DNA of 40,000 nt from Delftia acidovorans (GTDB lineage Bacteria > Pseudomonadota > Gammaproteobacteria > Burkholderiales > Burkholderiaceae_C), in the NCBI RefSeq assembly GCF_037146395.1, contig NZ_JBBCVP010000004.1; one strand, given 5' to 3'. The translations under genes and the position numbers were made by a program. Under the pieces are notes generated by a model. The model did not search any database. It was given only the letters and a program-made list of their open reading frames with translations, and was not told the origin of the DNA. This document shows positions 4,691 through 17,407 of the stretch, in pieces; positions within the stretch are counted from its first letter, which is position 1; every line of letters starts with the position of its first letter.

Positions 4691-5584
4691 TCAGCCCGCC
4701 GCCATGCGCTGCGCGAGAAAGTCCAGGAAGGCCGTGATGCGCGCGGCCAGCGCCGTGTTGCGGTAGTAGACGGCGTGGATGGGCTGGCGCTGCTGCACGG
4801 TCTCGCGCGCCAGCACCTGCACCAGCTCGCCCTGGGCGCGATCGCGCACGGTCATGAAGTCGGCCAGGCAGACCACGCCCTGGCCTGCCAGGGCCAGCTG
4901 GCGCATGGTCTCGCCGCTGGAGGCCGTGAGCTGGGGAGCGGCATCCCAGCGGTCGCCGCCCTCGGGCGTGCGCAGCGGCCAGTGGTTCAGGCCGGGCACC
5001 TGGCTGTTGCCAATGCGCTGGTGGCGCGCCAGCGCGGCCACGCTCGCCACGGGGCCATGGGCCTGCAGGTAGGCGGGGCTGGCCAGCACGCGCAGCACGC
5101 TGTGGCACAGCAGCCTCGCATGCAGCGTGGAGTCGCGCAGCTCGCCGATGCGGATGGCGATGTCGGTGCGCTGGGCCAGCAGGTCGATGTGCAGGTCATC
5201 GGTGTTCAGTTCCAGCGTGATCAGCGGATAGAGCGCGCGGAACTCGCCGACCAGCGGCACGATGGCATGCAGCATGAAGGGCGAGGCCGCGTTGACGCGC
5301 AGCAGCCCGGCCGGCGCCTGGCGCCGCGCGGCCAGTTCCTCCTCGGCCGCGTCCAGGGCCTGCAGCACCTCGCGCGTGCGGGCCAGAAAGCGCGCGCCTT
5401 CCTCGGTCAGCTCCAGGCTGCGCGTGGTGCGCCGCACCAGGGTGGTGGCCAGCTTTTTCTCCAGGCGCGACAGGCTGCGGCTGATGCCCGAGGTGGTCTG
5501 TCCCAACTGCTCAGCCGCAGCCGTGATGCTGCCGCAGTCGATCACGGCGCGAAAGGCCTGCAATTCGTCCAGGGTGGTTTTCAT
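4691..5584 (-). CDS. LysR-family transcriptional regulator
   Basis: 297 aa from MKTTLDELQAF. N-terminal HTH (GSITAAAEQLGQTTSGISRSLSRLE) plus a LysR substrate-binding domain. The 577-aa track ORF is an artefactual upstream extension. Confidence 0.9.
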   Translation of the reverse strand: MKTTLDELQAFRAVIDCGSITAAAEQLGQTTSGISRSLSRLEKKLATTLVRRTTRSLELTEEGARFLARTREVLQALDAAEEELAARRQAPAGLLRVNAASPFMLHAIVPLVGEFRALYPLITLELNTDDLHIDLLAQRTDIAIRIGELRDSTLHARLLCHSVLRVLASPAYLQAHGPVASVAALARHQRIGNSQVPGLNHWPLRTPEGGDRWDAAPQLTASSGETMRQLALAGQGVVCLADFMTVRDRAQGELVQVLARETVQQRQPIHAVYYRNTALAARITAFLDFLAQRMAAG

Positions 5585-5634
5585 GGGGCGCCAGCTTGGT
5601 GCAATTGTTGCTGCAGCGTCAAATATTTTCTGCT

Positions 5635-5650
5635 GATACCAGGCTTTATC
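5635..5650. promoter_or_regulatory. candidate LysR-type binding site (GATA-N8-TATC dyad)
   Basis: GATACCAGGCTTTATC lies in the divergent LysR/aldo-keto reductase intergenic region. Confidence 0.3.
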
Positions 5651-5725
5651 TGCAAGCGTTGACCCGCCAGACTGCGGTCTTAGGGGCGTTGTTCCGCGCC
5701 CTTTCTGCTTTTTTGAAAGACCTGC

Positions 5726-6547
5726 ATGACATCGACTTCCTCTCCCGCTTCCGTGGTGCCCGCGTTCGGCCTGGGCACCTTCCGCCTCAAGGGCGAGGTG
5801 GTGCGCCACTCCGTGGGCCAGGCCCTGGAGGTGGGCTACCGTGCCATCGACACCGCCCAGATCTACGGCAACGAGGCCGATGTGGGTGCCGCCATCGCCG
5901 CCAGCGCCGTGCCGCGCGATCAGTTGTTCCTCACCACCAAGATCTGGACCGAGAACCTGTCTGCCGACGCGCTGATCCCCAGCCTGGAGCGCAGCCTTGA
6001 AGCCCTGCGCACCGACCATGTGGAACTGACGCTGATCCACTGGCCCTCCCGCAGCGTGCCGCTGCAGGACAGCCTGGGCGCGCTCATGCGCGCCAGGGAG
6101 CAGGGGCTGACGCGCCACATCGGCGTGTCCAACTTCAACATCGCGCTGCTGCAGCAATCCATCGCCGCCGTGGGCGCCGCGAACATCGCCACCAACCAGA
6201 TCGAACTGAGCCCCTATCTGCAAAACCGCGCCGTCACCGACTTCGCGCGCCAGCAGGGCATTCACACCACCTCGTACATGACGCTGGGCTACGGCAAGCT
6301 GCTGGCCGATCCCGTGCTGGCCGACATCGCCACCGCCCATGGCGCCACGCCCGCCCAGGTGGCGCTGGCCTGGGCCATGGCCATGGGCTATTCCGTCATT
6401 CCCTCGTCCACCCGGCGCGCCCACCTGCAGGCCAACCTGGACAGCTGCCAGCTGGTGCTGGGTGCCGAAGACATGCAGCGCATCGCCGCGCTGGAACGCG
6501 GCGACCGCCAGGTCAGCCCTGACGGACTGGCTCCCGCCTGGGATTGA
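5726..6547 (+). CDS. aldo/keto reductase (2,5-diketo-D-gluconate reductase-like)
   Basis: 273 aa. AKR tetrad context present: [20 protein letters not shown]. Divergent from the LysR gene. Confidence 0.9.
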
Positions 6548-14860: not shown

Positions 14861-14907
14861 GCCGGGCCGGGCGCAGGGTCACGGCACAATAGGCGCTTTC
14901 GCCCCGC

Positions 14908-14937
14908 AGGCGGCCCCCCGGGCCGCCTTTGCTTTTT
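14908..14937 (+). terminator. rho-independent terminator after nadX-like gene
   Basis: Perfect 9-bp stem AGGCGGCCC/GGGCCGCCT with a CCC loop, followed by TTGCTTTTT. Confidence 0.7.
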
Positions 14938-14964
14938 GCCTGTGCCGTTGAAAGAGAAGCCACC

Positions 14965-15720
14965 ATGACCATCGCCATCCTCAGTGCCCTGCCGCAGGAA
15001 CAGGAAGGCCTGGTCCATGCCATGTCCGACGCCCAGGGCACGGCCCACGCCGGCCGCATGTTCTGGCGCGGGCGCCTGCATGGGCACGACGTGGTCTGCG
15101 CGCTGTCTGGCATAGGCAAGGTGGCGGCCGCCACCACGGCCACTGCGCTGATCGAGCGCTTCGGCGTGCGCCGCATCGCCTTCACCGGCGTCGCCGGTGG
15201 CCTGGGCGAAGGCGTGCGCGTGGGCGACGTGGTCGTGGCCGACGAATACCTGCAGCACGACCTGGACGCCTCGCCCATCTTCCCGCGCTGGGAAATGCCC
15301 GGCTACGGCCGCACGCGCCTGCCCTGCGACCCCGAAATGACGGCCGCCCTGCTGGCCGCCGCCCAGGCCTGCGTGGCCGACGCGGGTGAAGACCTGCGCG
15401 CCGCCCACACCACCACGGCGCCGCGTGCGCACCAGGGGCTGATTGCCAGCGGTGACCAGTTCGTGGGCACGGCGGGGGCTTCGCTGGCCTTGGCGCAGGG
15501 TCTGCGGGCTGCGGGGCATGAGGTGCTGGCGGTGGAGATGGAAGGTGCCGCCGTGGCGCAGGCCTGCCTGGACTATGGCGTGCCGTTTGCGGCCATGCGC
15601 ACGATTTCGGATCGGGCGGATGACAGTGCGCATGTGGACTTTGCGGAGTTTGTGCGGGTGGTGGCGAGTCGGTATGCGTTGCGGGTTGTTGATGGGTTTT
15701 TGCGGCGGCTTGCTGTTTGA
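14965..15720 (+). CDS. mtnN: 5'-methylthioadenosine/S-adenosylhomocysteine nucleosidase
   Basis: 251 aa from ATG 14965. Motifs SGIGKVAAA, EMEGAAVAQ, ISDRAD. Confidence 0.88.
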   Translation: MTIAILSALPQEQEGLVHAMSDAQGTAHAGRMFWRGRLHGHDVVCALSGIGKVAAATTATALIERFGVRRIAFTGVAGGLGEGVRVGDVVVADEYLQHDLDASPIFPRWEMPGYGRTRLPCDPEMTAALLAAAQACVADAGEDLRAAHTTTAPRAHQGLIASGDQFVGTAGASLALAQGLRAAGHEVLAVEMEGAAVAQACLDYGVPFAAMRTISDRADDSAHVDFAEFVRVVASRYALRVVDGFLRRLAV

Positions 15721-15749
15721 TTTTTGACCCTGCCGGGTGGTTGTTTTTC

Positions 15750-16000
15750 GAGGCCGGGTTTCGGCCCGGCGGCCGACCTACTTTCTTGCCGCGCGGCAAG
15801 AAAGTAGGCAAAGAAGCGCGCCCCACTGCCCACGACCCCTTCGCTGCGCTCCGGGGCGACCTGCGTAGGGCGCGATGCGGGGTGCGCCGTGAAACTCGTT
15901 ACGCGCTGCGCGCTTCACTCAAACATCACGGCGAGCTAGATGACGAAGCAGCCCTGTCCTTCGGCAGGGCTGCTACCCCGCACCCCGCCCAACGCAGGCG
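15750..16000 (+). repeat. structured ~250-bp repeat element, copy L (REP/MITE-like, no coding capacity)
   Basis: Contains three hairpins: GCCGGG..CCCGGC; a 14-bp stem CCTACTTTCTTGCC/GGCAAGAAAGTAGG at 15777-15808; and GCAGCCCTG/CAGGGCTGC. It is the reverse complement of 16141-16392, with the first ~38 nt identical. Confidence 0.85.
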
Positions 16001-16026
16001 TGGGCAGAAGGGGGAAGGCTGAAGGA

Positions 16027-16066
16027 CAGCCAACAGCCAACAGCCAACAGCCAACAGCCAACAGCC
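16027..16066. repeat. heptanucleotide microsatellite (CAGCCAA)x5 plus a partial sixth unit
   Basis: Five perfect CAGCCAA units at 16027-16061, then CAGCC. Located between the two inverted repeat copies. Confidence 0.95.
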
Positions 16067-16140
16067 AACAGCCGGCGCCATCGCTCCGCTCAGCTTCAAG
16101 CCGGGGCCGAGCGAAGCGAAGGCCCGTACCCACTCCCCGT

Positions 16141-16392
16141 ATGAACGCGCCTGCGGCGTGGTGGTTGCGGGGTTGCAGTCCTGCCGAAGGACAGGACTGC
16201 TTCGTCGACTGACTCGCTGCGGTTGTCTGAGCGGCGCGCGAAGCGCAAAGCGAGTTCCGCAGCGAACCCCGCAACCGCCACGACGCAGGTTGCCCCGGAG
16301 CGAAGCGCAGGGGTCGCGGGCATTCGGGTGCTTTTCTTTGCCTACTTTCTTGTAGCAAGACAAGAAAGTAGGTCGGCCGCCGGGCCGAAACC
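16141..16392 (-). repeat. structured ~250-bp repeat element, copy R (inverted relative to copy L)
   Basis: The reverse complement aligns along its length with 15750-16000. The same three hairpins are present, with stem-preserving substitutions. Confidence 0.85.
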
Positions 16393-16554
16393 CGGCCTCT
16401 GCCCGCCGGCCGGGCATGCGTCCAAAAGCAGACCCAGGAAGCATCAAAAAAGACCCCGAAAAACACACACCCAGACACACCTCTGTCATCCATTTCCCAC
16501 ACCCCTCCGTGTTTTCCCCAATCCCCCCCCGCCCCATCAGTCCTAAACTCACGC

Positions 16555-16593
16555 TTGTTTCAAGAAAAAAGTGTCATTTCAAATTTGAAACAA
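16555..16593. promoter_or_regulatory. split palindrome / candidate operator upstream of the 12-gene operon
   Basis: TTGTTTCA-N23-TGAAACAA. It contains the perfect 14-bp palindrome TTTCAAATTTGAAA (16577-16590). It ends 32 bp before ATG 16625. Confidence 0.55.
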
Positions 16594-16624
16594 GACACGA
16601 ACCCCCCTTCGATTGAGGAACGCC

Positions 16625-17395
16625 ATGAACACCACGCCCCCCACAGGCCAGCTTGCCGGCCGCCGCATCCTCGTCACAGGCTCGGCACGCGGCCTGGGCT
16701 TTGCGTTTGCCAAGGCCTTTTGCGAGCAGGGCGCGCGCGTCGCCATGGCCGATCTGCGGGAGGAGCTGCTGGCCGAATCCGTGGCCCGGCTGCGTGCGCA
16801 GGGCTTCGAGGCGCATGGCTTCGGGCTGGATGCCGGCAATCCGGAGTCGATAGAGCGCTGCGCGCAGCAGGCCGTGCAGGCGCTGGGCGGGCTGGACGGC
16901 CTGGTGAACAACGCGGCCGTGACCGATTCGGGCGGCAAGGGCATGGACGACATCGATCTGGACAAGTGGGACCAGGTGATGAACGTGAACGTGCGCGGCG
17001 TGTGGCTGATGACGCGTGCCTGCCGCGCCGCGCTGCGCGACAGCGGCCGGGGCGCCATCGTCAACCTGGCGTCCGACACCGCGATGTGGGGTGCCCCCAA
17101 CCTGATGGCCTATGTGGCCAGCAAGGGCGCGGTGATGGCCATGACGCGCTCCATGGCGCGCGAGCTGGGGGCCGACGGCATCACCATCAACGCCGTGGCG
17201 CCGGGCCTGGTGCTGGTGGAGGCCACGGAGTACGTGCCCGAGCACCGCCACCGCCTGTACATCGACCAGCGCGCGCTGCAGCGCGAGCAGCGGCCCGAGG
17301 ATGTGTCGGGCGCCGTGGCCTATGCGCTGTCCGATGGCGCGCGCTTCGTGACGGGGCAGGTACTGCCCGTCAACGGCGGCTTCGTCATGAATTGA
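16625..17395 (+). CDS. classical short-chain dehydrogenase/reductase (SDR)
   Basis: 256 aa from ATG 16625 (GAGGAA upstream). Motifs TGSARGLG, NNAAV, and Ser...YVASK with canonical spacing. Confidence 0.9.
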   Translation: MNTTPPTGQLAGRRILVTGSARGLGFAFAKAFCEQGARVAMADLREELLAESVARLRAQGFEAHGFGLDAGNPESIERCAQQAVQALGGLDGLVNNAAVTDSGGKGMDDIDLDKWDQVMNVNVRGVWLMTRACRAALRDSGRGAIVNLASDTAMWGAPNLMAYVASKGAVMAMTRSMARELGADGITINAVAPGLVLVEATEYVPEHRHRLYIDQRALQREQRPEDVSGAVAYALSDGARFVTGQVLPVNGGFVMN

Positions 17396-17407
17396 AGGAG
17401 GTTCGCC

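Follow-up and report, generated by a model that had tools for sequence, protein, structure and literature searches.

In the 40,000-nt window of Delftia acidovorans that we analysed (contig NZ_JBBCVP010000004.1), a large imperfect palindrome at 15721–16425 lies between mtnN and an operon of a short-chain dehydrogenase/reductase (SDR). Our results show that its two arms belong to a repeat family found widely across Delftia and further Comamonadaceae, that the multi-helix fold of this family is conserved through compensatory change across genera, and that copies are gained, lost, shortened and reassorted between close species, where they take the place of intrinsic terminators. With about even confidence, we read the palindrome as a tail-to-tail doublet, without cargo, of a giant selfish repeat in 3' untranslated regions (UTRs). 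Such a repeat would be akin to REPINs (repetitive extragenic palindrome (REP) doublets forming hairpins) and bacterial interspersed mosaic elements (BIMEs).

The palindrome begins at 15721, immediately past the mtnN stop codon (15718–15720), as a previous inspection of the letters alone, hereafter the sequence-only reading, had proposed. A repeat finder resolved two pairs of arms, one of 176 nt with 82% complementarity (15750–15925 / 16224–16399) and one of 83 nt with 78% (15931–16013 / 16135–16217). The longest identical block between the arms is 39 nt, with 15750–15788 the reverse complement of 16361–16399, in agreement with the ~38 nt counted by eye. The inverted pair is therefore real, and it is not due to chance, since 16 full-length copies occur in the same genome. 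Arm A (15721–16025, + strand, subfamily A) is a full-length match to a profile from the genome's own copies; this match (C4:162017–162335, equal to 15719–16037 of the window) was aligned with 15 other copies. Arm B (16136–16425, − strand, subfamily B) matches the profile at C4:162409–162699 (−). Between them lie a perfect heptamer tract detected by TRF, (ACAGCCA) x 6.9 at 16026–16073, which is the tail of subfamily-A copies, and the doublet centre (16074–16135), where the 3' tail motifs of the arms (GGSCCWTCGCTKCGCTCGGCC-like) face each other. A fold of the whole doublet allows a central hairpin at about 16082–16120. The centre is the same in three other tight doublets, and at this locus it carries no cargo.

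The mtnN gene (14929–15720, +; NF004079, 279 bits, cut-off 169) has the same orientation as arm A, and its stop codon directly abuts it. No terminator above background was found between mtnN and arm A in a scan of 15400–16700, and inside the doublet no promoter or terminator exceeded the shuffled background. The next gene is the SDR, from about 16613. Open reading frames (ORFs) that overlap the repeat have no protein-family match, and paired 1-nt indels inside helices between copies would destroy any reading frame; the earlier suspicion that these ORFs are spurious was thus justified.

A search of the window's own assembly with one arm (G000; 6.55 Mb, 53 contigs, numbered C1, C2 and so on) yielded 16 full-length copies with 72–92% pairwise identity and about 8 partial ones, with a unit of ~320 nt. 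In subfamily A the repeat closes with ...GCGTGGGCAGAAGGGG and runs on into the heptamer tract, and in subfamily B it closes with ...GCGCTGACATACGGGGAG and runs on into a GGGCCTTCGCTTCGCTCGGCCC tail. The window pair consists of A on the + strand and then B on the − strand, and the other tight doublets of this genome (C1:1002620–1003413, C3:472003–472708 and C8:14616–15325) are all A-B as well. Of the 24 congeneric species searched, 22 carry the repeat, and with one genome per genus it turned up in 47 of 200 genera within the GTDB family; it was not found in 16 other families of the same order (one genome each). The exact 26-nt motif of the first hairpin matched records of Variovorax, Hydrogenophaga, Acidovorax and Polaromonas, as well as Ottowia, Curvibacter, Rubrivivax, Zoogloea and Noviherbaspirillum, part of which are metagenome bins whose genus labels may be wrong. 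In Variovorax copies the 3' half differs in sequence and has the same architecture. We rejected horizontal transfer of 'Delftia' copies between genera: the flanks of loci from named strains of Delftia acidovorans and D. tsuruhatensis are 95–98% identical to G000 over up to 8 kb, so that the Delftia copies are orthologues. Rfam 15 gave no family match, its sole match being a microRNA model (21 bits, E = 0.4). In literature and database searches the repeat family was not described, and the nearest published item was the BRE repeat. Many genomic copies and covariation across genomes thus bear out the proposal of a dispersed, structured, non-coding repeat; the family is neither confined to a single locus nor devoid of covariation.

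The sequence-only reading counted three hairpins per arm; each arm is more structured than this, with about seven helices. From 5' to 3', arm A comprises a T-rich leader, H1/H1', H2, an A-rich linker and H3, which encloses H3a and H4, with H5 and H6 inside H4. The canonical leader TTTTTGACCCTGCCGGGTGGTTGTTTTTC (15721–15749, +) is conserved in 11 of the 16 full copies. Arm B has a variant leader (16400–16425) that is common to C8:6002, C4:90919 and C3:192511, and the similarity claimed to extend ~25 bp further out therefore holds only partly. Leader and first hairpin also occur alone, for instance at C3:344658 and C16:21871. H1 (15753–15759 / 15764–15770) and H1' (15761–15765 / 15772–15776) overlap within 15753–15776 (+); because they share bases, they would be alternatives or form a strained pseudoknot. 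On the opposite strand, the H1 region is a GTAGG-tagged, REP-like palindrome. H2 (15777–15808, +) is a perfect palindrome of 16+16 nt whose 5' strand is rich in pyrimidines and whose 3' strand is rich in purines; its stem is kept while loop and apex are very variable among copies. The conserved A-rich linker (15809–15821, +) follows directly. When the structure that RNAalifold predicts from 16 copies is projected onto the window, it gives a multi-branch core at 15822–16012 (+), with the closing helix H3 (15822–15834 / 15999–16012), the small H3a (15837–15856), the long-range helix H4 of 23 bp (15860–15884 / 15974–15998), H5 (15885–15892 / 15926–15933, inner stem 15898–15906 / 15910–15918) and H6 (15948–15958 / 15963–15973). 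The counterparts in arm B (−) are H1 at 16379–16396, H2 at 16341–16372, H3 at 16315–16328 / 16136–16149, H4 at 16265–16289 / 16150–16174, H5 at 16257–16264 / 16215–16222 and H6 at 16190–16200 / 16175–16185.

Both compensatory changes reported between the arms were confirmed, namely GCAGCCCTG/CAGGGCTGC at 15948–15973 against GCAGTCCTG/CAGGACTGC at 16175–16200, and the long stem CCTACTTTCTTG...CAAGAAAGTAGG at 15777–15808 against its counterpart at 16341–16372. Among the 16 paralogues, 27 of the 84 predicted pairs changed on both sides, with few cells broken. In a MAFFT alignment of 66 non-redundant copies from several genera, 45 of 66 consensus pairs were double-changed and 95.3% of the cells were paired, against 37–44% paired and 7–15 pairs in a slid-partner control. 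Here the H1 pair 5–20 covaries (CG 56, GC 9), as does the H1' pair 15–24 (GC 38, CG 24), the latter being the only covarying pair that stood out outside the nested fold. For a third set, a covariance model of the H4–H6 core was built from the G000 copies, to which 44 copies from other genomes were aligned, 7 of them Delftia orthologues. In this set, 45 of the 52 pairs changed on both sides (H4 21/23; H5 7/8 and 7/7; H6 9/11) and 92.4% of the cells were paired, compared to 33.4 ± 1.8 pairs and 69.1 ± 0.6% in shuffles, none of which reached the observed values (0/500), and to 29–46% paired in the slid control; the covariation score was 0.613 versus 0.195 in shuffles. These counts come with caveats: the 44-copy alignment is fitted to the model, and kinship among copies inflates such counts. 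Moreover, whole hairpin variants are reassorted among copies regardless of subfamily, so that the independent compensatory events are fewer than the cell counts.

Which strand folds is less clear-cut. A U.G wobble lies beside the H6 loop in 42 of the 44 copies, at either of two adjacent pairs (UG 22 / CG 21 and CG 22 / UG 20), and the matching A.C is nearly absent there (60:1). The conserved unpaired segments are A-rich on the sense strand. Overall, GU versus AC is 114 versus 80, which is not decisive. The sense strand is more likely to be the folded one, although we state this without confidence, and the folded form could be either RNA or single-stranded DNA.

Comparison with relatives revealed a turnover of copies. 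At the window locus, the doublet is also present in G054 and G057 (mtnN 94% and 89% identical). Arm B of G054 has lost 130 bp, and both arms of G057 carry other variants of the H2 hairpin. The heptamer tract, which also lies 3' of other A copies, differs in unit number between orthologous loci: in G054 it has grown and is interspersed with CAGCCAG units, while G057 has a similar unit number. In G008, the closest relative (mtnN 96%), arm B lacks 147 bp and arm A is replaced by ~1.5 kb with a Gp49/HigB-like toxin gene (PF05973, 75.6 bits), a helix-turn-helix (HTH) partner, a 91-aa ORF and a diverged remnant of the 5' module. The toxin and HTH antitoxin-like genes lie at 5333–5982 of locus L198 (G008:C7), orthologous to about 15721–16100 of the window, the site of arm A. 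The same SDR operon, with its operator/promoter stretch, also lies behind mtnN in G006 and G043 (mtnN 75%), where the ~300-bp spacer contains a terminator of its own and lacks the element. Hence the element entered a pre-existing spacer between mtnN and the operon, and it is no marker of an insertion boundary of that operon, contrary to what the sequence-only reading had suggested. G005 and G063 have neither the SDR operon nor a copy after mtnN.

Other loci show the same pattern. G054, G005 and G063 lack the copy C3:421746–422064, and the two convergent genes at this site nearly touch in them. Conversely, G054 has one copy (L218) at the site of a classical bidirectional terminator in G000 and another (L215) at the site of a BRE-like repeat, and in a third comparison between these genomes only the outer 37 nt of the copy remain in G000. 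Between filled and empty sites, the entire spacer between the stop codons differs. Orthologous copies are 82–95% identical and their flanks 89–97%, which indicates that single copies are under no visibly stronger constraint than the neighbouring genes. Remnants with only the 5' module make up 65 of 268 matches. As a separate observation, the species-specific copy on C3 is preceded by a 17-nt tandem repeat, GGGGGCGGGGGTGATGA (3–4 units; C3:~421600–421745, L009 ~1400–1480), which alters the final codons of the upstream gene compared to three other species.

Copies usually follow a co-oriented gene. In G000, the gene on the 5' side is co-oriented for 14 of 19 copies, and for 10 of 10 when its stop lies within 80 nt (−1 to 79 nt). 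Over all loci, with 172 distinct copies that are not independent and gene calls from a GC3 heuristic, co-oriented genes prevail by 128 to 44, and within 100 nt by 87 to 25. The 5' end of a copy often lies <50 nt past the stop of the co-oriented gene. In doublets between convergent genes (C1 and C3:472k), each arm is 3' of its own gene, whereas between tandem genes (the doublets of the window and of C8:14.6k) the second arm is turned towards the start of the gene that follows. Among 83 adjacent copy pairs, 74 are tail-to-tail ('+-'), 6 head-to-head ('-+'), 3 '--' and none '++'; the head-to-head pairs lie within alternating arrays, such as three successive doublets in G001. The C1 and C3:472k doublets are mutually nearest in both arms (92.3% and 91.8%), which suggests that the doublet was copied whole.

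Family-level conservation of the fold, decay of the copies, inverted doublets of two subtypes and the position after stop codons together point to a REPIN/BIME-like nature. In this reading, the family behaves like REPs, BIMEs and REPINs at ~10 times their size, and it looks like selfish or nearly neutral DNA just downstream of genes. The element would probably be co-transcribed with its upstream gene, here mtnN, and its hairpins would serve as 3' structure of the mRNA, either as an exonuclease block or as a read-through barrier; by standing in for this structure, the element might replace a terminator harmlessly. The fold could be kept at the level of the family if only intact copies were propagated, by machinery reading the folded single strand, while any individual copy would be dispensable and free to decay. 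Copying would act on the doublet as a unit and not on a single arm.

In several respects the element resembles the REPs, BIMEs and REPINs of Enterobacteria and Pseudomonas (REPINs: Bertels & Rainey, 2011, PMC3116915). It is extragenic, GC-rich and palindromic, shows compensatory hairpin changes and is located after gene ends. As in these systems, two subtypes are inverted around a short linker, alternating arrays occur and the doublet is apparently the copied unit. In addition, its 5' hairpin starts with GTAGG on the opposite strand, like GTAG-class REPs. However, a REP is a short imperfect palindrome, a single hairpin of 20–40 nt that usually has a 5' GTAG or CGTC tag and occurs in hundreds per genome, whereas our element measures ~320 nt, has about seven helices with long-range pairing, and numbers about 24 full and partial copies in 6.55 Mb. 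REP-associated tyrosine transposases (RAYTs; Nunvar et al., 2010, PMC2817692) are absent from this Delftia clade, and the Y1 genes of congeners are not physically linked to the element. The earlier label "REP/MITE-like element or structured RNA" (MITE, miniature inverted-repeat transposable element) was right about structure; the REP part applies only by analogy, with the inverted two-subtype doublet in common and unit size, copy number and RAYT at variance, and the MITE part is unsupported, as neither a target-site duplication nor a transposase relative was found.

Several observations weigh against a REPIN/BIME-like repeat. A 250-nt multi-branch fold kept across genera exceeds the known needs of REP-like elements. 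Outside H6, G.U amounts to 54 and A.C to 79, which does not favour the sense strand, and in 58 of 66 copies the lower folding energy belongs to the antisense strand, although the higher G+U content of that strand confounds this test. In tandem-gene settings, including the window, arm B is co-oriented with no neighbour. No near-identical copies occur in G000, the nearest relatives being 86–92% identical with a maximum of 92.3%, so that recent copying within the genome is not visible. Three comparisons of filled and empty sites revealed no target-site duplication (TSD) or clean termini. The only RNA-library material consists of assembled Logan contigs with flat depth over mtnN and the SDR gene, and contig depth is summed over repeat copies and hence uninformative on transcription. 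Finally, no propagating enzyme was found: PF01797 (Y1/RAYT) has no match in G000, G008, G054, G005 and G063.

The four RAYT-less relatives among these genomes (G008, G054, G005 and G063) carry about 20 copies each. Across congeners, 45 of 60 have one Y1 gene per genome, and the single Y1 genes in the complete genomes of G001, G003, G047 and G053 have no adjacent copy or such GTAG motif. A link to RAYT was rejected, as Y1 is absent from the copy-bearing clade and unlinked in these four other congeners. The 2.3-kb-spaced arms at C3:537513–539835, the only long arm pair in G000, were considered as an autonomous parent and rejected as well, because they hold a LysR gene and a small ORF instead. 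No transposase lies between arms at the loci examined, which were not an exhaustive census.

The main rival of a selfish repeat is that the arm is a host-functional structured RNA. It would either act in cis within the 3' UTR or be processed from the 3' UTR into an RNA that has a specific partner; each arm would be a functional unit, its multi-branch fold would be selected because it benefits the host, and its multiplicity would reflect recruitment to many genes. The strong covariation of the long-range helices across genera, the sequence conservation of the A-rich junctions and of the H6 U.G wobble, the co-oriented upstream gene with a start right past its stop codon, and the overlapping, covarying H1/H1', which could be a switch, would all fit such a role. 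Yet, orthologous copies are shortened or lost between species with 90–96% identical flanks, many copies are remnants, and orthologous copies evolve no slower than the flanking coding DNA (82–95% versus 89–97%). Furthermore, in many doublets the second arm faces no gene of its own orientation, Rfam has no match, and expression is not in evidence from the RNA-library contigs. We regard a host function as an unlikely, though serious, alternative. A comparably tentative proposal goes beyond known classes. The arms might represent a new class of large structured RNA or single-stranded DNA element, whose doublets spread without a known transposase or RAYT and home to gene 3' ends, perhaps via a transcript-derived intermediate; the doublet centre would then be a landing pad for small modules (an Xcc1-like RNA with a 90-aa ORF, and toxin-antitoxin pairs).

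Next among the rivals, the doublet might be an empty cassette site, with the arms as boundary or recombination sites for the exchange of small foreign modules. Where arm pairs enclose an insert, it consists of a LysR gene, a small ORF or a toxin-antitoxin pair. Doublets with gaps of 586–728 nt in three species (G000 C8:6002–7217, G005 and G008) all share one module, a ~90-aa ORF behind a conserved ~380-nt leader that resembles sRNA-Xcc1, and a Delftia reference strain has the same module beside a copy. The long pair at C3:537513–539835 encloses an Xcc1-like motif with the small ORF and LysR gene, the toxin, HTH partner and ORF of G008 replace arm A at the window locus, and states with the arm only or with arm plus module alternate between G000 and G054 at three loci. 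Against this, about 5 of the 74 tail-to-tail pairs sampled hold anything, and for this reason we treat a cassette-site role as minority behaviour and not as the main nature of the element. Moreover, no recombinase is linked, single arms are common, and most of the cargo is a single module, which is found away from arms as well (4–5 of 9 paralogues). The arms far exceed known recombination sites and, judged from their sequence, lack attC-type core sites in the right order. An exchange site is thus a distinctly unlikely explanation. Least of all do we expect a classical MITE, that is, a transposon reduced to ~700 bp by internal deletion, with terminal inverted repeats of ~300 bp, which a transposase encoded elsewhere would mobilise by cut-and-paste; we consider this very improbable. 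The inverted ends of the element are indeed long and share an identical outer block of 39 nt; it is also multi-copy and shows presence/absence between species. However, filled and empty sites lack a TSD, insertions replace the entire spacer between stop codons, arms also occur singly and in alternating arrays, and the sole long version encloses a LysR regulator and no transposase. In addition, the arms covary internally as folded units, whereas terminal repeats of DDE transposons need no such folding.

Other known systems were compared with the element. BRE, the beta-proteobacterial repeat element, is a ~90-bp unit described from intergenic regions of Bordetella and of Comamonadaceae, Delftia acidovorans among them, and forms head-to-tail tandem arrays (Hot et al., 2011, PMC3110155). 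Identity with BRE was rejected, as the published consensus (supplementary list S1) differs and the profile of the element misses BRE-like copies; a BRE-like family (~82 nt, ~17 copies) co-exists in G000, separate from the element. One of its copies, C5:262068–262182, fills a spacer where G054 has the large repeat. With the intrastrand triplex repeats PIT, BoxC and TMECO, the last a 34–37-nt G/C-rich motif CCCTCNCCC..GGGNGAGGG..GGGNGAGGG (PMC4666352), the element shares an intergenic position, frequent inverted tandem pairs, local genome variability and no mobility genes nearby. In PIT and TMECO, a pyrimidine stem, a loop and a purine stem precede a short loop and a mirror purine stem of 6–15 nt, and the strand order of H2 pyrimidine, purine and then purine-rich linker would fit this. 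In the element the third strand could cover 6–7 triplets only, the register would need the base of H2 to open, and a mirror repeat and a direct repeat look alike in the A/G tracts because of their symmetry; our data do not favour triplex repeats as the nearest relative. Unlike integron attC sites (57–141 nt, in arrays beside an integrase), the element is oversized and its copies are dispersed; attC has the order R''(RYYYAAC)...R'(GTTRRRY), while the element has GTTGGGC...GCCCAAC, in reverse order and in H4 of subfamily A only. Large structured RNAs tied to mobile DNA, such as HEARO or the omega RNA of IscB, measure a few hundred nt, have a multi-branch, strongly covarying fold and occur in many copies per genome, as does the element, which differs from them in matching no Rfam family, these RNAs included, and in having no adjacent nuclease or transposase gene.

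REP-type repeats have mainly been studied as short hairpins of gamma-proteobacteria, and the present family is ~10 times larger, with a fold conserved across about a quarter of the genera in a major beta-proteobacterial family and no associated enzyme found. For mobile-element biology, it offers a testable case of fold selection at the family level while single copies decay. For gene expression, it is relevant that the repeats take the place of terminators directly after stop codons, and in annotation the spurious Arg/Pro/Gly-rich ORFs over the repeats can be removed. The Xcc1-like leader and its uncharacterised small protein family provide a second experimental handle.

Some minor observations concern the surroundings of the locus. 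An operator-like palindrome precedes the SDR operon at 16555–16593; it is conserved in the element-free G006 and G043, and hence lies outside the repeat and is older than it. The spacer of these two relatives (L175 and L176) contains, beside the classical terminator CCGCGCTTGCCGCGGTTTTTTT, a long palindrome, GATAGCTG...CAGCTATC, which may be another repeat family. The 'transcriptomic' contigs X2, X4 and X11 (plant-metagenome and others) carry a ~96% identical relative of window 14900–17400 at even depth, which looks like a contaminant or associated strain and not like an expression signal.

With respect to the cargo, the ~380-nt leader gives a sub-threshold match to sRNA-Xcc1 in five places (RF02221, 33–38 bits, cut-off 53). 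In Xanthomonas integron cassettes, sRNA-Xcc1 lies upstream of a symE toxin gene (bioRxiv 10.1101/2025.06.18.660453). Separately, G000 has two full-score sRNA-Xcc1 genes, C9:206441–206528(−) and C13:34277–34364(−), with 80 and 75 bits. The ~90-aa ORF is helical and has nine paralogues in G000 (C8:6425–6691(−), C2:167859, C1:1085720, C11:158498 and 158888, C14:80983, C5:53046–53267(−), C17:10040–10234 and C9:266046), of which 4–5 lie within 500 nt of a repeat arm and most carry the conserved leader. It has 259 representative relatives in public data at E <= 0.001. No Pfam or NCBIfam family matches it, distant relatives included, and the only leads to its identity are a look-alike with a helical hairpin and faint similarities to 'Derepression protein' and to DUF1484.

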